This document shows, piece after piece, positions 1-10,359 of a stretch of 10,359 nt of DNA. Below the pieces are notes generated by a model. That model ran no database searches. It had not been told where the DNA came from and worked only from the letters and a program-made list of their open reading frames with translations. Made by a program: the position numbers and the translations under genes. Each line of letters opens with the position of its first letter. Positions within the stretch are counted from its first letter, which is position 1. Source of the DNA: an uncultured Thermoanaerobaculia bacterium. Its GTDB lineage: Bacteria > Acidobacteriota > Thermoanaerobaculia > Multivoradales > JBCCEF01. The stretch lies in the NCBI GenBank assembly GCA_964573125.1, contig CAZNIX010000144.1:1-10359 (forward strand), given 5' to 3'.

Positions 1-1
1 T

Positions 2-1312
2 CCCGGCGCCGGCGCGGCGGCGTTGCTGCTCGCCGCCCTCGCGCTGCCCGCCGCGGCCGCGGGCGAGGAGGCGTCGCCGTTCGGCGTCAACGCCCACGCG
101 CCCGAGGGCAAGCGCCTGCACCGACTGCTCGACGAGGCGGTGGCCGGCGGCGCCGGCTGGGTGCGAGTCGACTTCGCCTGGAGCGACATCCAGCCCGCCC
201 CCGGCCGCTTCGTCTGGCGGCGCTACGACGCGGTGGTCGCCGCCGCGCACGCGCGGGGCCTCTCCGTGCTCGGCCTGCTCCAGAGCACGCCGGGGTGGGC
301 GACCGACGGCCGGCCCGGCGTCGGCGTGCCGCGCCGGGTCGACGAGTGGCAGCTCTTCTGCTTCGCCGCCGCGCTCCGCTACCGCGGCGCGGTCGACCAC
401 TGGGAGGTATGGAACGAGCCCAACCTGCCGCGCTTCTTCGCCGGCGACCGCGACGACTACATCGACCGCGTGCTGATTCCGGCCGCCGAGGCGATCCGCG
501 CGGCGTCGCCCGAGGCGCGGGTCGGCGGCCCGGCGTTGAGCCAGTGGACCGCCGGCGGCAGCGACTGGCACCGCTGGCTCCACGAGGTCCTGCTGCGCGC
601 CGGCGACCGGCTCGATTTCGCCACCCACCACCTCTACGACCTCGACGGCCACCGCGACGTCACCCGCCGGCTCGAGCGCTCGACCACCGCCGGCGGCGAC
701 CCGCGCGCCTGGGACCTGTGGCCGCCGTCGGTGCGCGAGGTGCTGGTCGCGGCGGGCTGGTTCGGCCGCCCGTTCTGGCTCACCGAGGTCGGCTGGCCGA
801 CCGTGCCGGCGGGCATCCTGCGGGTGCCGAGCGAGGTCTGGCAGGCGCGCGAGCTGCGCGGCTTGCTCGCCGGCTGGACCGCCGGCCGCCCCGGCCGCGG
901 CTGGCTGCACAGGATCTTCGTCTACGAGCTGGTCGACGACCCGCGGGGCGGGATCGCCCGCCTCGGCCTGCTCCGCCCCGACCTCTCGCGCAAGCCGGCG
1001 TGGACGGCGCTGCGCGACGCCGCCGCGGCGTGGCGCGCCGCGAGGCCGCCGCCGGAAACCTCGCCGTCGGAGCCGCCGTCGCCGTCAGGACCGGCGCCGG
1101 AGTCTCGCCTGGGCCGAACCCTCCCGGGCCGGAGCGCGTCCGGTCGCCGCGCGGGAAGAACGGCACCAGCGGCCGGCACGGGGGCCGGGGAAGAGCTTGC
1201 GGTCGGTGCGCATTTCGGCAGCTCGGCGCATGGTCGCCTCGCGATGCGATGCGCAACAGCGATCGCGCCGGCCGCCATTCCGAAGAGCAGCGGTCCGGCA
1301 GGGTCGTGGTAG
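2..1312 (+). CDS. Secreted clan GH-A (GH5/GH39-like) glycoside hydrolase. It is 5'-partial: the signal-peptide h-region runs off the window start. The ~90-aa C-terminal tail is Pro/Ser/Gly/Arg-rich low complexity.
   Basis: The frame stays open from nt 2, reading ...PGAGAAALLLAALALPAAAA/GEE. That is a signal-peptide hydrophobic core with no upstream Met or basic n-region inside the window, so I call it 5'-truncated. The TTG at 23 is an unlikely start. Motifs are FGVNAH, WVRVDFAWSDIQP, EVWNEPN (clan GH-A acid/base Glu in NEP) and WLTEVGW (nucleophile Glu in TEVG). GC3 bias is strong. The stop is TAG at 1310-1312. The tail after about aa 340 (PPPETSPSEPPSPSGPAPE...) is low complexity and may be an over-extension. 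Confidence 0.7.
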   Translation, partial: PGAGAAALLLAALALPAAAAGEEASPFGVNAHAPEGKRLHRLLDEAVAGGAGWVRVDFAWSDIQPAPGRFVWRRYDAVVAAAHARGLSVLGLLQSTPGWATDGRPGVGVPRRVDEWQLFCFAAALRYRGAVDHWEVWNEPNLPRFFAGDRDDYIDRVLIPAAEAIRAASPEARVGGPALSQWTAGGSDWHRWLHEVLLRAGDRLDFATHHLYDLDGHRDVTRRLERSTTAGGDPRAWDLWPPSVREVLVAAGWFGRPFWLTEVGWPTVPAGILRVPSEVWQARELRGLLAGWTAGRPGRGWLHRIFVYELVDDPRGGIARLGLLRPDLSRKPAWTALRDAAAAWRAARPPPETSPSEPPSPSGPAPESRLGRTLPGRSASGRRAGRTAPAAGTGAGEELAVGAHFGSSAHGRLAMRCATAIAPAAIPKSSGPAGSW

Positions 1313-1355
1313 CTTGCCGCCGTCGCGTTGCGAACGCGTGACCGCGCTCCGAACG

Positions 1356-1589
1356 ATGAGCACGCCCGTCGATCGCCAGCCCTCGGAGGCCGAGCTCGAG
1401 GAGTGGCGGCGCGAATTCGAAGCCGCCGCCCGCCGCCCCCTCGAGACCCGCCTCCGCTACGCTTTCATCAAGACCTACAAGCCCGTCCTCGACGACGCCC
1501 GCTACCGGTCCTTCGACAGCACGGCCGAGTACCGCGCCTGGTGCGAGGAAAACCTGCCGAGCTGGCTGGGCTATGGCCGCTCCATTTGA
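1356..1589 (+). CDS. Small 77-aa hypothetical protein, the upstream partner of the nucleotidyltransferase gene. An alternative in-frame GTG start lies at 1338.
   Basis: ATG at 1356 and TGA at 1587-1589. GC3 bias is very strong, typical of genuine coding sequence in this genome. The product is MSTPVDRQPSEAELEEWRREFEAAARRPLETRLRYAFIKTYKPVLDDARYRSFDSTAEYRAWCEENLPSWLGYGRSI. The 3' end overlaps the next gene's ATG (1573) by 17 nt, which suggests translational coupling. I recognise no family. Confidence 0.5.
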   Translation: MSTPVDRQPSEAELEEWRREFEAAARRPLETRLRYAFIKTYKPVLDDARYRSFDSTAEYRAWCEENLPSWLGYGRSI

Positions 1590-2043
1590 ATACCGGCAGG
1601 CCGAGGAGATCCGGGACGCCCTGGCGCGCCACGGCGTCCGCTACCTGTTCATCGGCAAGTCGGCCGCGATCCTGCTCGGGTTCCCAGACACCACGCAGGA
1701 CGTCGACCTCTTCGTCGAGAAAGACGGGGACAACCATGCGGTCCTGGTGCGGGCGCTGGTCGACCTTGGCTTCGACCTCACCGATCGTGAGCGCCAGGAG
1801 GTCCTGCGCGGCAAGGACCTCGTGCAGCTCAAGAACGGGCCGTTCGACGTCGATCTCGTGTTCGCGCCCGACGGGATCGAGAGCTTCGAAGCGGCGTGGC
1901 GGCACCGGGTCGAGATCGAGGGCTTCCCGGTCTGCCACCTCGACGACGTCATCGCCAGCAAGGTCGCGAGCAACCGCGTCAAGGACCGTGAGTCGCTGCC
2001 GCGGTTACGCGCGTTCCGCGATTACCTGCGGCGCAGCGGGTAG
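1573..2043 (+). CDS. Minimal nucleotidyltransferase (Pol-beta superfamily) fold protein, 156 aa.
   Basis: The N-terminal region is LFIGKSAAILLGFPDTTQDVDLFV, which fits the hG[GS]x9-13 DhD nucleotidyltransferase signature (GKS ... DVD). A later acidic strand, FDVDLVF, could supply the third carboxylate. The C-terminal segment HLDDVIASKVASNRVKDRESL resembles helper helices in minimal-nucleotidyltransferase families. The ATG overlaps the stop of the preceding small gene. GC3 bias is strong. Confidence 0.65.
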   Translation: MAAPFEYRQAEEIRDALARHGVRYLFIGKSAAILLGFPDTTQDVDLFVEKDGDNHAVLVRALVDLGFDLTDRERQEVLRGKDLVQLKNGPFDVDLVFAPDGIESFEAAWRHRVEIEGFPVCHLDDVIASKVASNRVKDRESLPRLRAFRDYLRRSG

Positions 2044-2706
2044 CGCGGCGAGCCGCCGCGGCGCCGCGCGGATCTCGGGCACCTCGACGATGCGCACCCC
2101 CGCGGGCGGATGCTCGACCGCCTCGACCAGCGCAGCGACCATCGCGGCGAGCCGGACCAGGCCAAGCCGGCGGGCGCCGGCGCGGGTCGGGGGCAGCAGC
2201 TCGAGCAAGCCGTAGGCGGGGAGCAGGGCGTAGGCCCAGCGATGGCCGGGGCCGAGCACGTACCACGGCCGGAGGAAGGTGGTGGCGAGGCCGGTGGCGC
2301 GGATCGCCGCCTCGCCCTCCGCGCGCGCCGTGAGGTAGGCGCGCATCACCGGCGCCGGCTGCGCGACGCTGACGTAGACCACGTGGCGCACCCCGGCCGC
2401 GGCCGCCACGGCGGCCGACTCCCGCGCCGAGACCAGGTCGACCTCCCGGAACTGCCGCGCCTTCGAGGGGTTCGGCTTGGGCGTGCCGACGAGCTGGACG
2501 AGGGTGTCGGCCGGCGGTATGGCGGCCTCGAAGGTGCGGCGGTCGAGGGCGTCGCCGGGGACGACCTCGCAGCCGGGCGGGAGCTTCGCCTCCGCGCCCG
2601 GCCGGACCAGCGCGCGGACGGCGTGCCCCCGCGCGAGCAGCTCCGGGATCAGCCGCCGGCCGAGGTAGCCGGTGCCGCCGGTGACGAAGACGTGGCGGGG
2701 CGGCAC
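2005..2706 (-). CDS. NAD(P)H-binding atypical SDR / NmrA-like epimerase-dehydratase family protein, 233 aa.
   Basis: The N-terminus is MPPRHVFVTGGTGYLGRRLIPELLARGHAV, a Rossmann TGGTGxxG motif. Codon bias is good. Its start lies 6 nt downstream of the truncated-haemoglobin stop, consistent with an operon. Its 3' end overlaps the convergent plus-strand nucleotidyltransferase gene by 39 nt. Confidence 0.8.
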   Translation of the reverse strand: MPPRHVFVTGGTGYLGRRLIPELLARGHAVRALVRPGAEAKLPPGCEVVPGDALDRRTFEAAIPPADTLVQLVGTPKPNPSKARQFREVDLVSARESAAVAAAAGVRHVVYVSVAQPAPVMRAYLTARAEGEAAIRATGLATTFLRPWYVLGPGHRWAYALLPAYGLLELLPPTRAGARRLGLVRLAAMVAALVEAVEHPPAGVRIVEVPEIRAAPRRLAALPAAPQVIAERA

Positions 2707-2712
2707 GTCGGT

Positions 2713-3183
2713 TTACGGCGCCTCGACGATGTCCGCCTTGAGCGTCGACACCACCGCCAGCAGCTCGTCCTTCTCGGCTTGCGGCACCTTGAACTTGTCG
2801 AGCGTCGCCACCAGGTGGGCGACCGCGGCGTTCCACTGCGCCTCGGTGATGCCGAGCCCGGTGTGGGAGGTCTTCATGTCGCGGCCGGTGTAGACGCAGG
2901 GGCCGCCGGCGGCGGCGCAGAGCTGCTCGACGACGAGCTGGCGGATGTGTCCCTTCGAGTCGTTGGAGTGGCCGGCGAAGAAGCGCGCCAGCGACGGGTC
3001 GGCGAGCAGCCGGCCGATGAAGTCGTCGGTCACCGCGGCGATCGCGTCGTAGCCGCCGAGGCGCTGGTAGAGCGAGGGCTTCTCATGGTGGTCGGCACGG
3101 ACCGCCGCCGGCGCGGCGGCGAGGGCGAAGGCGACGACGGCGAGGGTCGCGAGAGCGAATCGGGACGTGCGGGCGCTGAGCAT
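2713..3183 (-). CDS. glbN: Group I truncated haemoglobin (2/2 Hb, trHbN-like) with an N-terminal signal peptide, so probably periplasmic or secreted.
   Basis: SLYQRLGGYDAIAAVTDDFIGRLLADPSLARFF ... GGPCVYTGRDMKTSHTGLGIT matches the trHbN pattern (LYERLGG...AI..VVDDFY.R...D..L..FF ... GGP..YTG..M...H.G.GIT), with the proximal His in KTSHTG. The N-terminus MLSARTSRFALATLAVVAFALAAAPAAVRA looks like a signal peptide. A strong SD (GGGGAGGAGG) sits 5-6 nt upstream of the ATG at 3183. Confidence 0.85.
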   Translation of the reverse strand: MLSARTSRFALATLAVVAFALAAAPAAVRADHHEKPSLYQRLGGYDAIAAVTDDFIGRLLADPSLARFFAGHSNDSKGHIRQLVVEQLCAAAGGPCVYTGRDMKTSHTGLGITEAQWNAAVAHLVATLDKFKVPQAEKDELLAVVSTLKADIVEAP

Positions 3184-3348
3184 GTGTCCTCCTCCCCGAA
3201 GGGGGTCGTTCCAACGCCAGTACGGCGCCGGCCCACCGGCGGATGAGTGTCAGTCCCACCGCGCTCCCCGGCCACGCCCCGTCGCCGCCCGACCGGTAGC
3301 CGAGACCTGCGCCGGATGGCGCGGGTCGAACGCACTTGGGCGGGGGCG

Positions 3349-6330
3349 CTACGGCGTGGTCGACGACCACGACGAAACGTCGCCGCTCTCGAAGCCGTCG
3401 GCGAAGATGAGCGCCTCGACGGTCGAGAACCGCCGCGCGACCCGGGTGACGTTGCCCTGGTGGTCGGCGACCTCGGCGGAGAGCGTGGCGGCGGTCAGCT
3501 CGGGGAGCGGCTGGGACAGCAGGATCGCGTAGACCCCGGGCGCCTGCTCGACCGCGAGGTCGGCCAGCTCGGCGCCGGGCGGGCGGCCCTCGACCGGCAA
3601 GTCGGCGGTCAGAGACAGCGTCGCGAGATCGACCCCCGAGTTGGCGTCGGCGACGCCGACCCGCAAGAGAAACACCGGATCGGGGTTGAAGCCCAGGCGC
3701 GGGACGCTCACGTGGAGCGTTGGCTTGAGGTCGTCGAGGAACCAGCCGAAGCCCGGGCTGCCGTCGGTCACGGCGGTGTCGATCGGGCAGCCGAGGTCGA
3801 TCCAGCGCGCGAACGTCATCTTCTCGTCGATCGAGAGCGGCGGCACGCCGCTCCCCGGCGGCGGCATGATCGTGCCGGTGTAGTCGAGGTCGGCCTCGTT
3901 GGGGTCGGCGCCGGGCGGCAGGGTGTTCGGGTCGCCGGGCACCGACTCGGTCGGGTGGTCGGCGTTGGTCCAGCCGTCGAAGCGCTGGCCGAAGACCTTC
4001 CAGGCGAGGAGGCTCCGCCGGCTCTGGAACCGCCGCACGTAGCGGCTGGCGTTGGTCTGCCGCCAGGTGCCGTTCCCGATCACCGGCGGGTGGCCCCACT
4101 GCGCCGGGTCGTCGTCGCAGAGGCGCTTGTAGTCGCCGGGGAGGCCGCCGTAGAGCGCGAGGTCGTCGAGCACGAGGTTGCCGCTCGGCGCCGCCGCGGC
4201 GTGGCACGCGCCGGTGCACGAGCGCTGGAGGAGCGGGCGGACGTCCTGGTAGAACTCGACGTCGACGACCGGCGCCGGCACCACCTCGAGATCGGGCTGG
4301 CCGCCGGCGTCGTAGGAGACGAGCGGCGTCACCGTCGAGAGGTCCCAGACCGGAAAGCCCGGCTGGCCGGCGGCGGTGTCCTCGAACGCGAGCGGCTGCT
4401 GGCTGTGGGCGTGGCAGCCGCCGCAGTTCGCGCGCACCTCGCCCGGCCGCACCTGGTGCCAGGTCTGCGCCATGTTGAGCACCATGCCGTTGCGGTCGAG
4501 GGTCTGGAACGTGAACGGGGTGTCGGCCGGCACCTTGACCAGGAAGCTGGTGTCGGGGTTGCCCTCGGGGTCGAGGACCGGCTGGCCCTGGCCGTCGAAC
4601 TTGCGCACCGGGATCTCGCCGAGGATGCGGTGGCGCTCGTTGGCGTGGTTTGAGAAGTGCTGCCCCTCGTTGGGGCCGTAGCTCCGGTGGGTGTTGGGCT
4701 CGAGCGCGACCAGGCGGATCGCCCAGATCGCGGAGTTCGCGTACTTCCCTGCGTCCGCGCCCTGGTAGTCCCAGTTGCTCGACTGGCCGTTCTCCGAGGT
4801 GTTGAAGGCGTCGAGGCCGTCGAAGGTGTCGGCCCACGGCGTCACCCAGCCGGGGAAGCTCTCGCGCTTGTAGAGGCTCGAGGTGCCGACCAGGCCGAAC
4901 GGCGTCCCCGCCGGCAGCTCGGGGTGGAGCGTGCCGTCCTCGGGGAGCCAGGGGATCGCCGCCGGCTCGGCGACGCCGTGCACGGCCGCGTAGGGCACGA
5001 CCGCCCGCGGCCACGCCTCGTTGTAGGCCGGGTCGTTCTTGAGCAGGACCAGATCGGTGGGCGACCAGACCGGATCGCCGCCCGGGACCAGGTAGAGGCC
5101 GCTGTCGTAGTAGGGGAGCGGCGTCGGCCGGTCGAGGTCGTTCGCGGGCCCCGGCGTCCACGCCGCGAGGAGGTCGCCGCCCGGCGCCGCCGACGGGTGG
5201 GTGAACTTGCCCACCCTCACGCCGCCGGCGCCGGCCGGCGCCGCCTCGTCGTCGCCGTGGGTCAGCGGCGAGATCGAGATCATCCCGCGCGGCGTGAACC
5301 CCATCTGGAACGGGTAGAAGAGGCCGTTGCCGATCGTGCGGTCGATCGCCGGGTTCTCGCTCGGGAACGCCGAGTGGAACGGCGGCTCGCCCGGCGGCGG
5401 CGCGGCCGGGAAGCGGTAGAGCGCGCCGAATCCGTTGTTGTTGAGGTTGTAGTAGTCCTCGACCACGAGGTCGCCGTCGCCCATCTGGGTCATGAAGTGG
5501 AACGCCGACGGCTGCTTGAACGCGCTGACGAGCGGCCCCCAGCTCCGGCCGTCCGGGTAGATCGTCCAGATCCCCCACAGGCGCCGGTCGCGCAGCCCCT
5601 GGCTCTCGTAGGAGGAGAACGCGATCCGCCCGTCCTGGAGGATCGTCGGGTGGAGCGCGCTCCCGATCGTCATCGGCGCGATCGGCGTGACGTTGGCGCC
5701 GTCCTCGTCCATCACGTAGAGCTGGAGCGTCGGCGCGGTGAAGCTCCGCGGCGGCGTGAAGCCGTTGCGGTTCGAGCTGAACGCGACCTTGCCGCCGGGG
5801 AGCGGGCAGGGGCCGAGGTTGAGGATGCCGTAGCCGAGGCGGTTGAAACCGGCCGGCGGATCGAGCGGGTTGGTCTCGTCCCAGATGCCGGCGCCGGTGT
5901 TGGGGGTGAACTCGCCGTGGGTGAGCTGCTCGACCTGGCGGCTCGCGAGGTGGATGCGGAAGACGTCGGCGCCCAAGAGCGGCAGCTCGTCGCGCTGCGG
6001 GTTGGTCTGGGTCAGGTCGTGGAAGAGCGCGTAGTAGACCCACTGGGCGTCGAACGACACGAACGGGTCGGTCACCGAGCAGACCGTGCAGTCGACGAGC
6101 AGCTCCTCGCTCCCGTCCGGGTGGAGCAGCACGAGATCCGCCCCCGGCTCGGCGCGCGCCGGGTGAAAGACCTCGGGCCAGGTCGTGTTGTCGAGGTCGC
6201 CGTAGCGCGGCTGGCGGACGTAGACGACGTCGTAGGGAACGGGCGGCTGGGCGGCGGCCGGGACGGCGAGAGCGAGGGCGGGGCCGGACGCGAGGGCGAG
6301 GCGCAGGACGCGCGAGAAAAACAGCTTCAT
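3349..6330 (-). CDS. Large secreted multidomain protein, 993 aa: an N-terminal PD40/TolB-like beta-propeller, a central CXXCH site, a Planctomycete-cytochrome-C (PSCyt1)-like segment carrying CX3CH, and a C-terminal ADGFESGD tail.
   Basis: The signal peptide is MKLFFSRVLRLALASGPALALAVPAAAQ. The SD GGAGGT lies 6 nt upstream of the ATG at 6330. PD40-like blades include GGKVAFSSNRNGF, DGRIAFSSYESQG and YPDGRSWGP. NCGGCHAHS (CGGCH at nt 4411-4425) is a canonical c-type haem-binding CXXCH. VEFYQDVRPLLQRSCTGACHAAAAPSGNLVLDDLALYGG ... MPPPGSGVPPLSIDEKMTFARWIDLGCPI (nt ~3781-4260) follows the PSCyt1 pattern (F..DV.PIL...C..CHG...L.LD ... MPP...L...E...L..WI..GA), but with CTGACH (CX3CH, nt 4201-4218) in place of CXXCH. 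The C-terminus ends ...ALIFADGFESGDVSSWSSTTP. Coding bias is strong throughout. Confidence 0.85.
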   Translation of the reverse strand: MKLFFSRVLRLALASGPALALAVPAAAQPPVPYDVVYVRQPRYGDLDNTTWPEVFHPARAEPGADLVLLHPDGSEELLVDCTVCSVTDPFVSFDAQWVYYALFHDLTQTNPQRDELPLLGADVFRIHLASRQVEQLTHGEFTPNTGAGIWDETNPLDPPAGFNRLGYGILNLGPCPLPGGKVAFSSNRNGFTPPRSFTAPTLQLYVMDEDGANVTPIAPMTIGSALHPTILQDGRIAFSSYESQGLRDRRLWGIWTIYPDGRSWGPLVSAFKQPSAFHFMTQMGDGDLVVEDYYNLNNNGFGALYRFPAAPPPGEPPFHSAFPSENPAIDRTIGNGLFYPFQMGFTPRGMISISPLTHGDDEAAPAGAGGVRVGKFTHPSAAPGGDLLAAWTPGPANDLDRPTPLPYYDSGLYLVPGGDPVWSPTDLVLLKNDPAYNEAWPRAVVPYAAVHGVAEPAAIPWLPEDGTLHPELPAGTPFGLVGTSSLYKRESFPGWVTPWADTFDGLDAFNTSENGQSSNWDYQGADAGKYANSAIWAIRLVALEPNTHRSYGPNEGQHFSNHANERHRILGEIPVRKFDGQGQPVLDPEGNPDTSFLVKVPADTPFTFQTLDRNGMVLNMAQTWHQVRPGEVRANCGGCHAHSQQPLAFEDTAAGQPGFPVWDLSTVTPLVSYDAGGQPDLEVVPAPVVDVEFYQDVRPLLQRSCTGACHAAAAPSGNLVLDDLALYGGLPGDYKRLCDDDPAQWGHPPVIGNGTWRQTNASRYVRRFQSRRSLLAWKVFGQRFDGWTNADHPTESVPGDPNTLPPGADPNEADLDYTGTIMPPPGSGVPPLSIDEKMTFARWIDLGCPIDTAVTDGSPGFGWFLDDLKPTLHVSVPRLGFNPDPVFLLRVGVADANSGVDLATLSLTADLPVEGRPPGAELADLAVEQAPGVYAILLSQPLPELTAATLSAEVADHQGNVTRVARRFSTVEALIFADGFESGDVSSWSSTTP

Positions 6331-6572
6331 GGCGGCACCTCCGTGCCAGCCCGGGACCCCGCCGGCGCGCGACCGGCCGCCCGGGCCACGAATCGAGTGT
6401 CCTCAGCCCGCCGAGGGTAGCACAGGGGCCCTGGGGCGTCCGCCTCGCCGAGCCGAGGTCGATCCCTCGAACGGCCGGAGCGGACCCCAGCCGAGGCACC
6501 GGCGGCGGTGTAACCATCGGCGTACATGCTACGCTGCGCCGTCGGTTCCACCCTGGCAAAGGAGGCTCAACG

Positions 6573-7910
6573 ATGCGAACCTTCGCCCTCGTCTCGTGCA
6601 CCCTGGTCACGCTGCTCGCCGCCGCGGCGCCGGTCTCGGCTGCCGGCACCCTCTACGGCGTGTTCTTCGACACTGCGGTCTCGGAAGAGACGCTCTTCGC
6701 GGTCGATCCCGCGACCGGCGCCCTGACCCCGCCCGGCGCGGGCATCGCCGACTGCTGCTTCATCGCCAGCGGGGTCTCCAGCCTCGATCCCGACGCCGGG
6801 GTCTTCTTCTTCATGGGCCGCCGGATGTCGGACGGTGCGGACGACTTCCGGATCTGGAGCCTCGACCTGGCGAGCGGAGCGGTGCTGGCCAACCCGCTGC
6901 TCCCGGCGGGCAACAACTACAACTTCCTGGAGTTCGATCCGTCGTCGGGGACGCTCTACGCGGTGGTGTTCGACACCGGGGCCGCCGAGGAGCGGCTGGT
7001 CGAGGTCGACCCCGCGACCGGCGCGCTGACCCCGATCGGCGCCGGCGTCGCCGACTGCTGCCTCATCCCGAGCGGCGTCTCCGCCCTCGACTCCGCGGGC
7101 GGCGTGTTCCACTTCGTCGGCCGCCGGATGTCGGACGGCGCGGACGACTTCCGGATCTGGAGCCTGGACCTGGCGACCGCGGCGGTGGGGGCCAACCCGC
7201 TGCTGCCGGCGGGCAACAACTGGAACTTCCTGGAGTTCGATCCGTCGTCGGGGACGCTCTACGCCGTGGTATTCGACACCGTGGCCGCCGAGGAGCGCCT
7301 GGTCGAGGTCGACCCCGCGACCGGGGCGCTGGGGACCGTCGGCGCCGGGATCGCCGACTGCTGCTTCATCTCGAGCGGCGTGTCGGCGCTCGACCCGGGC
7401 GACGCCGAGTTCCACTTCGTCGGCCGCCGGATGTCGGAGCCGGACGACTTCCGGATCTGGAGCCTCGGCCTCGCGACCGGCGCGGTGGCCGCCAACCCGC
7501 TGCTGCCGCCGGGCAACAACCACAACTTCCTCGAGTTCGACCCCGACGCCGGGCCGCCGGGGCCGATCGAGGTCGCGATCGACGTCAAGCCCGGGAGCTT
7601 CCCCAACAGCGTCAACCCGCGGAGCAACGGCGTGATCCCGGTCGCGATCCTGACCACCGAGAGCTTCGACGCGCTGACCGTCGATGCCGCGACCCTGCGC
7701 TTCTCGGGTCCGGCCGGCGCCCCGATCGCCCACGCGGCACCGCACCCGGAGGACGCCGACGGCGACGGCGACACGGACCTCGTCGTCCACTTCCGCACCC
7801 GCCAGACCGGGATCGCCTGCGGCGACACCGAAGCGACGCTGGTCGGCGCCACCCTCGGCGGCGACCCGATCGCGGGGAGCGACAGCATCCGGACCGTCGG
7901 CTGCTCGTAG
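6573..7910 (+). CDS. Secreted tandem-repeat protein, 445 aa: a signal peptide, three 101-aa repeats each with a vicinal Cys-Cys, and a C-terminal ~115-aa domain carrying an Asp-rich Ca-binding-like loop.
   Basis: The SD GGAGG lies 7 nt upstream of the ATG at 6573. The signal peptide is MRTFALVSCTLVTLLAAAAPVSAAG. The repeats are GTLY(G/A)VVFDT...VDPATGAL...GAG(I/V)ADCC(F/L)I.SGVS.LD....F.F.GRRMS...DDFRIWSL.LA.GAV.ANPLLP.GNN.NFLEFDP. The C-terminal domain is IDVKPGSFPNSVNPRSNGVIPVAILTTESFDALTVDAATLRF...PEDADGDGDTDLVVHF. I do not recognise the repeat family. Confidence 0.8.
   Translation: MRTFALVSCTLVTLLAAAAPVSAAGTLYGVFFDTAVSEETLFAVDPATGALTPPGAGIADCCFIASGVSSLDPDAGVFFFMGRRMSDGADDFRIWSLDLASGAVLANPLLPAGNNYNFLEFDPSSGTLYAVVFDTGAAEERLVEVDPATGALTPIGAGVADCCLIPSGVSALDSAGGVFHFVGRRMSDGADDFRIWSLDLATAAVGANPLLPAGNNWNFLEFDPSSGTLYAVVFDTVAAEERLVEVDPATGALGTVGAGIADCCFISSGVSALDPGDAEFHFVGRRMSEPDDFRIWSLGLATGAVAANPLLPPGNNHNFLEFDPDAGPPGPIEVAIDVKPGSFPNSVNPRSNGVIPVAILTTESFDALTVDAATLRFSGPAGAPIAHAAPHPEDADGDGDTDLVVHFRTRQTGIACGDTEATLVGATLGGDPIAGSDSIRTVGCS
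6645..7553 (+). repeat. Three in-frame tandem coding repeats of 303 nt (101 aa) at 6645, 6948 and 7251. Repeats 2 and 3 are about 85-90% identical at the nucleotide level, and repeat 3 carries a 3-nt deletion.
   Basis: Direct comparison finds GGGACGCTCTACGC(G/C)GTGGT(G/A)TTCGACACC recurring at 6948 and 7251. GCCGACTGCTGC recurs at ~6748, ~7051 and ~7354. GGCCGCCGGATGTCGGA...GACGACTTCCGGATCTGGAGCCT recurs in all three units. Confidence 0.85.
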
Positions 7911-8071
7911 ACAGGGAGCGCTCGCGGCGGCGCGCGGCAGCGACGGCACCGGGGACCTCCCGCCGCAGCTCGGCGATCACCACCATCCGCTGCTCGCGCT
8001 TCGCCGCGACCGCGGTCAACCCCGAGCGCCCGCTCTGCGGTAAGCTCTCGCCGCCCGAGCTTCGATCCGCC

Positions 8072-8791
8072 ATGACCCCACGCGCCGCCCGCATCCTTCG
8101 CCGGCTCGCCCTCGCGGTCGTGCTCCTCCTGGTCGCGGCCCTCGCGGCGTTCACCTACATGGTCGGCGGCCCGCGCAACCTGATCGGCATGCTGCGCTAC
8201 GACCAGCGGGAGGAAGGCAAGCTCCAGGTCGGCGATCCGGCGCCCGACGTCCTGCTCACCGCGCTCGACGGAGCGCCCGATGCTCCGCTGCTCGCCGACC
8301 GCGACGGCAAGGCGCTGGTGATCGTCTTCGGCAGCTTCACGTGACCGCCGTTCCGGCGCTCGGTCGAGCGCCTCGGAGAGATGGCCGAGCGCTACGCCGA
8401 CCGGGCCGTCTTCCGCACCGTCTACATCAAGGAGGCGCACCCGGAGGACGAGTGGCAGATGGACAGCAACGAGGAGGAGGACGTCTGCTACCGCCAGCCG
8501 CGGTCGCTCGCCGACCGGCTGGCGATCGCGCGCGACTTCACCGCCCGCTTCGACTACCCGATCCCGCTGCTCGTCGACGGCCTGGACAACGCGGCGATGC
8601 ACCTCTACTCGGGCTGGCCCGAGCGCTTCTACATCGTCGGCGCCGACGGCCTGATCGCCTACAAGGGTGAGCCGGGGCCGTTCGGGTTCGAGCCCGAGGA
8701 GGTCGAGGAGTGGCTCGAGGCGCATCCACACGCGGCGGCACACCCACCCGCGGCGGCCGGCGCCGCCTCGGGCGAGGAGCCCGCCTCGTAG
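8072..8791 (+). CDS. Iodothyronine-deiodinase-like thioredoxin-fold selenoprotein, 239 aa, with Sec at residue 91 encoded by an in-frame UGA at 8342-8344 and an N-terminal membrane anchor.
   Basis: The ORFs ending at 8344 and starting at 8381 share one reading frame. Reading through the TGA gives ...KALVIVFGSFT-U-PPFRRSVERLGEMAERYADRAVFRTVYIKEAHPEDEWQ ... YPIPLLVDGLDNAAMHLYSGWPERFYIVGADGLIAYKGEPGPFGF. The deiodinase family active site is FGS(A/C)TUP(P/S)F, followed by VYIEEAHPSDGW and then PERLYII..GKIVY.GG.GP. The N-terminus MTPRAARILRRLALAVVLLLVAALAAFTYMV is a transmembrane anchor or signal. A SECIS-like hairpin begins 6 nt after the UGA. The gene stops at TAG 8789-8791. Confidence 0.75.
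8351..8378 (+). promoter_or_regulatory. Putative bacterial SECIS element (an mRNA hairpin directing Sec insertion at the UGA at 8342).
   Basis: GGCGCUC (8355-8361) pairs perfectly with GAGCGCC (8366-8372), giving a 7-bp stem around the apical loop GGUC (8362-8365). The stem extends by UUCC (8351-8354) pairing with GGAG (8375-8378) across a 2-nt bulge (UC, 8373-8374). The apical loop contains G and U and starts 18 nt after the UGA. That falls inside the 16-37 nt window used by bacterial SECIS models. Confidence 0.6.
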
Positions 8792-8832
8792 CGGACCGGC
8801 CGCCGCGCGGGGCGACGCGGGGCAAGAAAAAG

Positions 8833-8862
8833 GCCGCCGCCCCCCGGTGGGGACGGCGGCCG
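8833..8862. terminator. GC-rich hairpin between the convergent selenoprotein and SPFH genes. It is probably an intrinsic terminator, best oriented for the minus-strand gene.
   Basis: GGCCGCCG-C-CCCC / GGU / GGGG-A-CGGCGGCC forms an inverted repeat at 8833-8862. It is flanked on the plus strand by AAGAAAAA (8824-8831), which becomes UUUUUCUU immediately after the hairpin on the minus-strand transcript, 16 nt downstream of the SPFH stop. No U-tract follows on the plus strand. Confidence 0.5.
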
Positions 8863-8876
8863 AAATCACCTCCGAT

Positions 8877-9986
8877 CTACAGCAGCTTGACCACCCGCTC
8901 GGCGAGGCCGCCCTCGCCGAGGACCACGGTCAGGTTCGCCTTGCCGGCGACCTGCTCGAGGACCTCCAGCTCGCGCAGGCGCATCAGAGTCGGGTTCGAC
9001 TCGAAGATGCGGGCGGTGTTCGCCTGCGAGCGGATGGCGGCGGTCTCCTCGCGGCGGGTGACCAGCGTGGCCTCCGCGGCCTTCTTCGCCTCGGTCACCC
9101 GGTTGAGGATCTCCTTCATCTCGCCCGGCAGGATGACGTCGCGGATGCCGAGCGCGCGCACCTCGACGCCGAACGCCTCGGTACGCGCGCGCAGCTTCGC
9201 GGTCAGCTCGCCGGCGACCGCGTCCTTGCCCGCGAGCAGGCCGTCCAGCTCGCGGCCGCCGACCACCTCGCGCAGCGCGAGCTGCGCCTGGCGGTAGAGC
9301 GCCTGGGTGGCGTCCTCGACCTCGGTCGCGGCGCGCACCGGGTCGGCGACGCGGTACGCGACCAGCGCGTTGAGCCGCAGGGTGACGCGGTCGGCGGTCA
9401 TGATCTCCTGCCCGGAGACGTCGAGCGCCTGCTCGCGCAGGTCGAACGCGACCACCTTGACGTCGCCCTCGCCGCGCCAGAACGCGTGCTGGCCGGGCGG
9501 CAGCGTCGCGACGTGGCGGCCGTCCTGGAACAGTAGGCCGACCGCGCCCGGCGCGACCGCCGCGGTCTGGAGGTGCACCGCGGCGCCCGGGGCGCGCAGG
9601 ACGACCTGCAGCTCCGGGTGCTCGAAGCGCACGCCGCGGGTGTCGATCACCTCGGCGCGCACCTCGTGGAACACCGTCCACACCGCGTGCAGGCCGGGGC
9701 CGAGGACCGCGCGCAGGCGGCCGTCGATCCAGACCAGCGCCCGCTCGTGGTCGCCGAGGTCGAGCACCCGGGCGCGCTCGCCGAGCGCCCCCGAACGCAC
9801 GATCACCTCGAGGTCGCGGTGCTCGAGCCAGGGCTCGCGCACCGGGACCTTCTCGACCCGGGTCTCGAGCAGCGGGTCGAGCACGGGGTGCCGGCCGGGG
9901 TCGAGCAGGCGCCGGAAGACGCCGGCCTCGAAGACCAGGCCCACCTCGTGCTCGCGCACGCGGGTCCAGCCGATCGGAAAACGCAT
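8877..9986 (-). CDS. SPFH/Band-7 (stomatin/slipin-like) domain protein, 369 aa, with three ~55-aa N-terminal internal repeats.
   Basis: The SD GGAAGGAGGTG lies upstream of the ATG at 9986. The ORF-track start at 10328 is an Arg-rich over-extension. The SPFH core is DVSGQEIMTADRVTLRLNALVAYRVADPVRAATEVEDATQALYRQAQLALREVVGGRELDGLL ... GVEVRALGIRDVILPGEMKEILNRVTEAKKAAEA. The N-terminal repeats are LVFEAGVFRRLLDPGRHPV, LVWIDGRLRAVLGPGLHAV and LLFQDGRHVATLPPGQHAF. The stop is TAA at 8877-8879. Confidence 0.8.
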   Translation of the reverse strand: MRFPIGWTRVREHEVGLVFEAGVFRRLLDPGRHPVLDPLLETRVEKVPVREPWLEHRDLEVIVRSGALGERARVLDLGDHERALVWIDGRLRAVLGPGLHAVWTVFHEVRAEVIDTRGVRFEHPELQVVLRAPGAAVHLQTAAVAPGAVGLLFQDGRHVATLPPGQHAFWRGEGDVKVVAFDLREQALDVSGQEIMTADRVTLRLNALVAYRVADPVRAATEVEDATQALYRQAQLALREVVGGRELDGLLAGKDAVAGELTAKLRARTEAFGVEVRALGIRDVILPGEMKEILNRVTEAKKAAEATLVTRREETAAIRSQANTARIFESNPTLMRLRELEVLEQVAGKANLTVVLGEGGLAERVVKLL

Positions 9987-10027
9987 CACACACCTCCTTC
10001 CCGCGCCGGCGAACCAGGCGGCCGGCG

Positions 10028-10195
10028 CGAAACCTGAAACCGAGACCGCCGGTCCCGTCCACGTTTCGAAACCCGCTCGCGCCGGACGGAGCCGGCGAGT
10101 GCAGGCGTGAAACCGAGCCGTCGATCTTGATCGCGGATCGGAACCCCGCTCGCGGCGAACGAGCCGTCGCGCGCAAGCCGGAAACCGAAACACGG
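10028..10195. promoter_or_regulatory. Upstream region of the SPFH gene carrying clustered GAAAC(C) motifs and a perfect 10-bp palindrome, GTTTCGAAAC. It is a candidate transcription-factor binding array.
   Basis: GAAACC-T-GAAACC occurs at 10028-10040, GTTTCGAAAC at 10063-10072, GTGAAACCGAG at 10107-10117, and GGAAACCGAAAC at 10180-10191. These are A/T-rich islands in DNA that is otherwise ~75% GC. The motifs AACCCGCTCGCG (10071) and AACCCCGCTCGCG (10143) also recur. Confidence 0.3.
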
Positions 10196-10359
10196 CACTC
10201 CGGCGCCGCGACCGAGCCGCGCACGCCGGTTGGGGGTGCGGACCGCGGGACCACCAGCGCCTCCGGCGCGGCCAGCCTCGCAGGCTGGATGGGCCCGCCG
10301 GGGGGCGGCGCACGGCCGCGCGCCGCACGCTCGGCGCGGGGTCCGCCTCCCGCGGCCGG

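Follow-up and report, generated by a model that had tools for sequence, protein, structure and literature searches.

A free-standing relative of the hydrazine synthase alpha subunit, with two c-type haem motifs and a recurrent C-terminal tail, in an uncultured Thermoanaerobaculia bacterium

To our knowledge, hydrazine synthase (HZS) was long thought to have no relatives, and the haem alpha-I site of its alpha subunit ranks among the most unusual in biology. The present work concerns a distant relative of that subunit, encoded in a stretch of 10,359 nucleotides from an uncultured Thermoanaerobaculia bacterium (GenBank assembly GCA_964573125.1, contig CAZNIX010000144.1, positions 1 to 10,359; hereafter, the window). 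Its gene (3349 to 6330, minus strand) encodes a protein of 993 residues, which adds a new member to the stand-alone HZS-alpha-like dihaem cytochromes, a kind of protein already known though not yet characterised. In HZS itself, the CXXCH histidine of haem alpha-I (His587) binds zinc and Tyr591, four residues on, ligates the iron (PMC12607021, PMC12758564), while haem alpha-II sits in a typical class I fold (PMC12607021). A large PF18582 family is already present in the literature (PMC12758564, PMC10732223). Haegglund et al. 2025 (PMC12758564) distinguished four clades (I to IV) of non-anammox alpha homologues, the genes of which adjoin genes for a fused beta-gamma homologue; these proteins lack Tyr591, Cys303 and His772 and were judged not to be hydrazine synthases. 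Proteins of the family studied here, from Dokdonella_A, Pseudomarimonas and Binatia (~970-1,200 aa), appear only in the supplementary hit table of that study, as weak matches at 81-87 bits and ~24% identity. Dalcin Martins et al. 2023 (PMC10732223) suggested that such hzs-like genes represent a broader enzyme family with other substrates.

The single Pfam match of the 993-residue protein is to PF18582 (HZS_alpha; 54 bits against a cut-off of 26.6, E=2.6e-14), a domain that all 120 listed relatives carry as well. When all PDB sequences were searched with phmmer, the only real match was 5c2v_A, the alpha subunit of Kuenenia hydrazine synthase, which was matched in four collinear segments: the propeller, the middle domain with its CXXCH motif, the second CXXCH and the terminal WIDLG helix. 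A profile built from 45 family members matched the same chain, and no other in the PDB, at E=2.7e-12, again in four segments and in the same order. An AlphaFold2 (AF2) model of the protein (predicted template-modelling score [pTM], 0.79; mean predicted local distance difference test score [pLDDT], 74) had 5c2v_A as its best Foldseek match (E=3e-22, 968 columns, target-normalised TM score 0.59, 14% identity), and the next matches were bare propellers at E ~5e-8. Since the whole chain aligns collinearly with HZS-alpha, the architecture was inherited rather than newly fused, and the protein is a free-standing member of the HZS-alpha superfamily with the complete HZS-alpha architecture. The gene and its product are laid out as follows.

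3349..6330, minus strand: complete coding sequence, 993 aa plus TAG stop, from the open reading frame (ORF) list; stand-alone HZS-alpha-like dihaem cytochrome c
6338..6342, minus strand: Shine-Dalgarno sequence GGAGG, with the ATG 7 nt downstream, read directly
6250..6330, minus strand: predicted Sec-type signal peptide, residues 1-27 (K/R n-region, hydrophobic core, PAAA before the Q at the cleavage point), read from the sequence
4876..6243, minus strand: six-bladed TolB-like beta-propeller with long inserted loops, residues ~30-485
4267..4743, minus strand: HZS_alpha middle domain, residues ~530-688 (PF18582 match at residues 558-640, nucleotides 4411-4659; aligned to 5c2v_A 513-575)
4405..4425, minus strand: CGGCHAH, first c-type haem attachment site, residues 636-642; equivalent to haem alpha-I of HZS
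3763..4266, minus strand: class-I-type cytochrome c domain with two family-specific insertions, residues 689-856; equivalent to the haem alpha-II domain of HZS
4201..4218, minus strand: CTGACH, second haem site, residues 705-710, a CX3CH variant of the family's CXXCH
3856..3867, minus strand: MPPP, residues 822-825, a loop predicted to supply the distal Met ligand to the second haem (ligand role inferred)
3421..3738, minus strand: seven-stranded beta-sandwich, residues 865-970, without equivalent in HZS-alpha
3352..3411, minus strand: C-terminal tail LIFADGFESGDVSSWSSTTP, residues 974-993, a motif common to many unrelated secreted proteins

By eye, the N-terminus (MKLFFSRVLRLALASGPALALAVPAAA, followed by Q) resembles a Sec signal peptide; residues 2-20 form a helix in the AF2 model, and this stretch is variable in the family alignment. 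The cytochrome c domain, which aligns with 5c2v_A 641-693 and 748-768, has modelled helices at 693-704, 732-738, 769-780 and 834-845. Beyond it, the strands of the beta-sandwich span residues 871-969 at a pLDDT of ~90; Pfam gave no match for this domain (865-970). There are nine cysteines in the translation, four of them in CGGCH and CTGACH. An identical protein was called on an independent Logan assembly. An Rfam scan of the window, the GC content of which is ~73%, gave no matches. Shadow ORFs of the kind seen in high-GC DNA, with lengths of up to 1,188 aa (e.g., 3083-6649, minus strand), overlap 3349-6330 in other frames or on the other strand; they are not genes.

Both haem motifs lie where the first-pass annotation of this DNA had placed them within the ORF, with CGGCH at residues 636-640 and CTGACH (CX3CH) at 705-710, and their occurrence in a protein with a signal-like N-terminus is the motif pattern of a c-type cytochrome. 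CGGCHAHS (636-643), C705, C709, H710 and M822-P823-P824 are invariant in 45 of 45 aligned sequences, and the motifs are not a product of chance. At the first site, CGGCHAHS is present in 118 of 120 close relatives; 90 of 94 distant representatives have His two positions after the motif histidine (H+2) and none of the 94 has Tyr at H+4, the family signature being C-x-G-C-H-x-H. The residue aligned to Tyr591 of HZS is Gln644, which varies within the family. With the Tyr591 equivalent absent and the His at H+2 present, this site has the appearance of an ordinary His-ligated haem c to which a further conserved histidine is added.

The second site could be scored in 112 relatives, 104 of which have CXXCH and 8 CX3CH. 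Six of these eight form one clade, and the five nearest relatives of the 993-residue protein all have CXXCH, so that its CTGACH arose independently, which brings the family to at least two origins of CX3CH. Both CX3CH and CX4CH sites can accept haem. The site that the first-pass annotation had picked out as noncanonical is real, but it is a minority form of one that is normally CXXCH, and the insertion is a tolerated variant rather than a defining oddity. The loop aligned to His772 of HZS contains the invariant MPP; there is no His at the aligned spot itself, MPP lies a few residues earlier and an invariant histidine, H792, lies 30 residues upstream. Ligation at site 2 is probably His/Met, with Met822 as the likely sixth ligand, which would fit a higher potential than that of the bis-His alpha-II haem of HZS. 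Judged from its sequence and homology, the 993-residue protein very probably carries two c-type haems, is secreted and has a TolB-like propeller.

The family to which this protein belongs is large, and its hosts are ordinary bacteria of soil and water. A word-indexed search returned more than 2,800 relatives, and an exhaustive HMMER search of representatives at 50% identity returned 2,472 clusters at E<=1e-3 and 530 at E<=1e-30. The best 120 relatives are 66-75% identical to our protein and ~990 aa long, have PF18582 as their only match and are all called hypothetical. While the closest relatives are found in Thermoanaerobaculia, other hosts among the reference genomes belong to Binatia, Multivoradales, Lysobacterales, Verrucomicrobiota, Planctomycetota and Myxococcota. 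The cultured Lysobacterales hosts include Dokdonella immobilis, Marinicella sediminis, Marinicella gelatinilytica and Pseudomarimonas salicorniae, and aerobes are among the cultured hosts (e.g., Dokdonella immobilis, Marinicella and Pseudomarimonas). Family members are 65-75% identical across several phyla, the 45-sequence alignment has 288 invariant columns, and very strong purifying selection is evident across phyla. Elsewhere in the superfamily, members are fused to fn3 domains and to surface immunoglobulin (Ig) arrays, fusions that fit an extracytoplasmic location. One protein of the representative library (P0132; 1,567 aa), annotated as a single protein, has regions 2 and 4 of an extracytoplasmic function (ECF) sigma-70 factor N-terminal to the HZS-alpha-like module; the arrangement may stem from gene calling, or it may hint at ECF sigma/anti-sigma control of some members.

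Genomic context was compared across 80 related loci, each with the 10-kb flanks of the homologue. Neither beta nor gamma genes (nor a fused beta-gamma gene) were found in the window, and the flanks of the 80 loci contained no conserved neighbour. All-against-all clustering of the flanking ORFs revealed no partner common to more than 11 loci; the families that do recur are generic (hybrid histidine kinases, GGDEF proteins, AcrB, Ser/Thr kinases, ABC transporters and type II secretion system E [T2SS-E] ATPases) and vary in position and orientation from locus to locus. There were no tandem paralogues in the 80 loci, and no nitrogen-cycle gene recurs nearby in them. On a 3.2-Mb Multivoradales contig, the homologue is located among housekeeping genes, between thrS-pheST and rny. 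The other genes of the window encode a glycoside hydrolase, a nucleotidyltransferase-like protein, an SDR protein, a globin, a DUF6923 protein, a deiodinase-like protein and a Band 7 protein, none of which was found within 10 kb of the homologue in the 80 loci, save for the deiodinase-like gene in one close relative. Within its 10-kb flanks, then, the gene is solitary and has no conserved partner.

One neighbour in the window is itself a predicted haem protein:

2713..3183, minus strand: group I truncated haemoglobin with a signal-like N-terminus (PF01152, 56.5 bits; Mycobacterium tuberculosis HbN, E ~4e-20)

This globin gene lies on the same strand as the HZS-alpha-like gene and 165 bp downstream of it. 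A promoter and terminator scan of 2600-6700 found nothing, and with a same-strand gap of 165 bp that holds no terminator-like site, co-transcription of the two genes is possible. The haem-protein neighbourhood proposed in the first-pass annotation does exist at this locus, but the globin was found within 10 kb of the homologue in 0 of the 80 related loci, and the adjacency is particular to this organism. As for the globin itself, it is most like M. tuberculosis HbN mutants of the Y33F/Q58V type. Ile occupies its TyrB10 position and Val its GlnE11 position, and the polar distal pair of HbN O2/NO chemistry is therefore absent. Its signal-peptide-like N-terminus is unusual for globins.

Two accounts of what the 993-residue protein is, other than the one given above, were weighed. 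The first-pass annotation had seen in it an unusual and rare architecture, a PD40/TolB-like propeller fused to c-type haem motifs and a PSCyt1-like segment. The propeller is indeed structurally TolB-like, with TolB as its closest propeller structure and a six-bladed TolB-type fold, but Pfam PD40 (PF07676) was not matched at E<=1 by the full protein or at E<=10 by the isolated propeller. Similarly, segment 689-856 follows the PSCyt1 pattern by eye (F..VRP.L...C..CH, then SLL, MPP and WIDLG), but PSCyt1 (PF07635) was not matched at E<=10 by the native sequence or by isolated domains. Only after removal of the two insertions and substitution of the consensus CXXCH did PSCyt1 reach 14.5 bits (cut-off, 22; E=0.054), and the same edited sequence gave a sub-threshold match to Cytochrome_CBB3 (E=0.03); the likeness is best taken as class I cytochrome resemblance and not as membership. 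The absence of PD40 and PSCyt1 matches had been named beforehand as grounds for dropping the haem assignment. Neither model matched, but that test was too narrow, because the haem assignment is supported by homology to a crystallographically proven dihaem subunit, independently of PD40 and PSCyt1. Far from being rare, moreover, the combination of propeller and haem c is represented by the 2,472 clusters mentioned above, and what had looked like an unusual fusion is the complete architecture of the HZS-alpha family according to Pfam, the profile match to 5c2v_A and Foldseek. An independently assembled fusion of a PD40/TolB propeller, a CXXCH and a PSCyt1 module is contradicted by the collinear HZS-alpha alignment, and we consider it very improbable. 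At the other extreme, the protein might be a genuine hydrazine synthase alpha subunit and mark an unrecognised anammox-type organism, since both Pfam HZS_alpha and NCBIfam hydrazine_alpha match it. The match to the latter (NF052339, an equivalog model) scored 34.6 bits against a cut-off of 800, which is so far below the cut-off as to indicate homology without the same function; furthermore, identity to 5c2v_A in the Foldseek alignment is only 14%, Tyr591 is absent, beta and gamma genes were not found in the window or in the 80 related loci, and cultured aerobes are among the hosts. We give this second account next to no credence: because the HZS-specific Tyr ligand is missing, the protein is not a hydrazine synthase.

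The protein ends in a tail with the pattern hF-x-DGFE-S-G-D-x-S-x-W-S-x-x-x-P-stop, 20 residues in length. The expectation that the DGFESGD..SW tail would recur on other secreted proteins was borne out both in genome flanks and in a metagenome scan. Among the 120 closest relatives of the 993-residue protein, 67 end in the full motif and 15, mostly from Gammaproteobacteria, in a short ...F.DGFE form; the remaining 38 have other C-termini and are mostly longer proteins with extra domains. Six unrelated ORFs in 1.38 Mb of flanking DNA from 81 genomes also end in the motif, and these include an M28/LapA-like peptidase, an FG-GAP protein and a CarboxypepD_reg repeat protein. Metagenomes were scanned with a degenerate DNA pattern for DGFE[ST]G[DN]xxxW, and the results given here hold among the matches listed, which comprise at least 129 in-frame occurrences. 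Of these, 85 lie 12 or fewer residues from a stop, most often with the stop five residues after the Trp, and the consensus of the tail is hF.DGFESGDTSAWSxxVP-stop. Signal-peptide-like N-termini are present in 33 of the 43 complete carriers. The carriers include BNR propeller, glucose/sorbosone dehydrogenase, FG-GAP, beta-helix and leucine-rich repeat (LRR)-fn3 proteins, as well as trypsin-like and M14 peptidases with MAM domains; no HZS-alpha-like ORF was found among the motif occurrences. Several short contigs (L097, L131, L140, L145, L175 and L177) contain two or three carriers each, with three in L177, a clustering which suggests that some genomes encode many such proteins.

The 993-residue protein has only the last 20-30 residues in common with the other carriers, and the beta-sandwich that precedes its tail is not shared by them. 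In the AF2 model, the tail is disordered (pLDDT <56). No Pfam or NCBIfam model covers it, no NCBIfam CTERM model matches it, and nothing relevant to the motif was found in the searchable literature. Internal copies of the motif coincide precisely with the beginning of ConA-like jelly-roll domains, of which they form the first strand; in L105 (residues ~644-797), for instance, the motif opens a 3keto-disac_hyd domain (DUF1080; from residue 646), and in L152 (residues ~906-1054), it opens Polysacc_lyase and 3keto-disac_hyd domains. L091 has three copies, the string RYGD[LVI]IFEDGFESGDLTRWSSASTGGGDVSVTG occurring three times in its neighbouring ORFs. On this basis, the tail is an orphan copy of the jelly-roll first strand, and as such, it could act as a donor strand that docks on a surface or outer-membrane receptor; alternatively, it could be the target of an enzyme dedicated to its processing. 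That the tail would serve in sorting or docking is plausible. The more specific proposal, that the tail represents an undescribed C-terminal localisation signal, devoid of a transmembrane segment and used by many secreted cargoes in several phyla, the HZS-alpha-like cytochrome included, is put forward tentatively, and we regard it as doubtful rather than likely.

With regard to function, we think it probable that the 993-residue protein is a Sec-exported, free-standing dihaem member of the HZS-alpha superfamily that serves as an extracytoplasmic haem redox enzyme. The haem c of the middle domain (C636/C639/H640), held against the propeller, would serve for catalysis or substrate binding, with ordinary His ligation where HZS has its Tyr/Zn arrangement. 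The second haem c (C705/C709/H710), probably with Met822 as its sixth ligand, would be housed in the class-I-type cytochrome c domain, and this His/Met domain would exchange electrons with a soluble respiratory carrier, the tail being a separate module that probably takes part in the localisation of secreted proteins. In its general plan, such an enzyme would resemble cd1 nitrite reductase and the quinohaemoprotein dehydrogenases. Some observations weigh against such an enzyme: in the AF2 model, the pLDDT falls below 50 at residues 637-641, and the C-terminal haem domain in its native sequence matches no Pfam cytochrome c model. In addition, haem alpha-II of HZS reportedly lies outside the range for efficient electron transfer with the other haems, and no function has been assigned to it (PMC12607021), so that electron transfer within the present protein would be an assumption.

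A specific sub-case of this reading would have a free-standing alpha-I-type site transform small nitrogen compounds (hydroxylamine, NO or hydrazine) in heterotrophs that are aerobic or facultative, as a detoxifying or heterotrophic-nitrification-type enzyme. The sole characterised homologue has its proposed site for the condensation of hydroxylamine with ammonia at the equivalent haem (PMC12607021), alternative substrates for hzs-like enzymes have been the subject of speculation (PMC10732223), and here, although in no related locus, the gene lies 165 bp upstream of one for a secreted truncated haemoglobin of group I, a class with NO dioxygenases among its members. However, the arrangement of Tyr591 and His587-Zn that defines haem alpha-I chemistry is absent, as is a beta-gamma subunit that would supply hydroxylamine; the globin, which lacks TyrB10 and GlnE11, is a neighbour in none of the 80 related loci, and no nitrogen-cycle gene is recurrent nearby. 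Chemistry on nitrogen compounds is possible, with no positive support beyond homology, and we hold it to be quite unlikely. Slightly better odds, although still those of an unlikely event, are given to a non-catalytic surface or periplasmic electron shuttle, binding protein or scaffold, in which the haems would serve purely in electron transfer or structure and the TolB-like propeller would bind a protein or ligand. Such a role would accord with TolB as the closest propeller structure, with the fn3 and surface Ig array fusions of the superfamily, with a C-terminal tail of the localisation type and with the lack of a known catalytic role for haem alpha-II in HZS (PMC12607021). It fits less well with the extreme conservation of the family: 288 invariant positions and 65-75% identity across phyla are more typical of an elaborate active site, and strongly conserved loop clusters (e.g., 505-528 and 623-643) surround the first haem motif. 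The extracytoplasmic redox enzyme thus remains the reading that we prefer.

Two other genes of the window deserve mention in their own right. The deiodinase-like (thioredoxin-fold) gene at 8072-8791 (plus strand) contains an in-frame TGA at 8342-8344, within VIVFGSFT-TGA-PPFRR, a context that agrees with SxT-U-PPF, the active site with selenocysteine in iodothyronine deiodinases. In the ORF list, the gene had been split into two pieces in the same frame (6329..8344 and 8381..8791), and NCBIfam deiodinase_rel matches only the C-terminal part of the split gene. A perfect hairpin, GGCGCTC-ggtc-GAGCGCC, is located at 8355-8372; its folding energy is no better than that of shuffled sequences (z -0.86), and it is therefore only a candidate selenocysteine insertion sequence (SECIS) element. 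In a Thermoanaerobaculia metagenome-assembled genome (locus L006, 2041-2382), a deiodinase-like gene 66% identical to that of the window lies within 10 kb of the HZS-alpha-like gene, which is best read as residual synteny and as a pointer to the Thermoanaerobaculia origin of the window. The product of the divergent gene at 6573-7910 (plus strand) is secreted, contains a ~100-aa repeat three times in tandem and has a weak match to DUF6923 (34.5 bits). The repeat can be written as ...GTLYAVVFDT..EERLVEVDPATGALT..ADCC..SGVSALD..FHFVGRRMS..DDFRIWSLDLA..NPLLPAGNN.NFLEFDP..., and it gives rise to repeated shadow ORFs on the opposite strand.

These findings are of moderate interest, on account of the size and conservation of the branch in cultivable aerobes and of a widespread tail, the tail being the newest element found. 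They show that ordinary aerobic and facultative bacteria, several of them cultured, harbour a branch of the HZS-alpha superfamily that is both very large and remarkably well conserved; this branch works with neither beta nor gamma subunit, and its haem pocket looks conventional. Characterisation of a single member would reveal the role of the ancestral alpha scaffold, with a bearing on the evolution of anammox chemistry, and would assign a function to thousands of proteins now called hypothetical. The tail, in turn, may prove to be a C-terminal tag of a new kind, carried by secreted proteins.

In comparison with known systems, the tail resembles the C-terminal sorting signals (PEP-CTERM, GlyGly-CTERM, MYXO-CTERM, LPXTG and the C-terminal domain [CTD] of the type IX secretion system [T9SS]) in being a short, conserved motif at the extreme C-terminus of unrelated proteins with signal peptides, with several carriers per contig. 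It differs from sortase- and exosortase-type signals in its lack of a transmembrane helix or basic cluster, as the protein stops 5 residues beyond the Trp, and the T9SS C-terminal domain is far longer. As for the domains, the propeller is set apart from TolB/PD40 propellers by its long insertions, by its fusion to two haem domains and by the absence of a Tol-Pal context. The cytochrome c domain shares with PSCyt1 and other class I cytochromes c an N-terminal helix, CXXCH, MPP and a C-terminal amphipathic helix, in that order, and in the insertion-free edit, the weak matches span the whole of the PSCyt1 and Cytochrome_CBB3 models; it differs from PSCyt1 in its two insertions and its CX3CH spacing, and the PSD1/PSCyt2 domains typical of PSCyt1 proteins are not associated with it.

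The closest likeness is to HZS-alpha of Kuenenia stuttgartiensis (kuste2861; PDB 5C2V chain A), with which the 993-residue protein has in common the order of the propeller, a middle domain with a CXXCH haem and a class I cytochrome c domain that ends in a WIDLG helix. Unlike HZS-alpha, to which it is only ~14% identical, it has the nonconserved Gln644 in place of the iron ligand Tyr591, the invariant residue being instead a His two positions after that of the motif (CGGCHAH); its second haem has as distal ligand probably the Met of the invariant MPP rather than a counterpart of His772; there are ~30 additional residues between the second haem motif and the distal loop; and a beta-sandwich and the 20-residue tail are added at the C-terminus. 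Its gene has no beta or gamma partner genes, and the hosts are not anammox bacteria. With clades I to IV (PMC12758564) and the hzs-like genes (PMC10732223), it shares membership of the PF18582 superfamily, the loss of Tyr591, the lack of a characterised representative and a predicted canonical haem c pocket. Those clades are defined by co-location with a gene for a fused beta-gamma homologue, often with an FG-GAP/CRTAC1 gene as well, whereas the present family has no such neighbour; and while clades II and III lack the second haem domain, the present family keeps it invariant.

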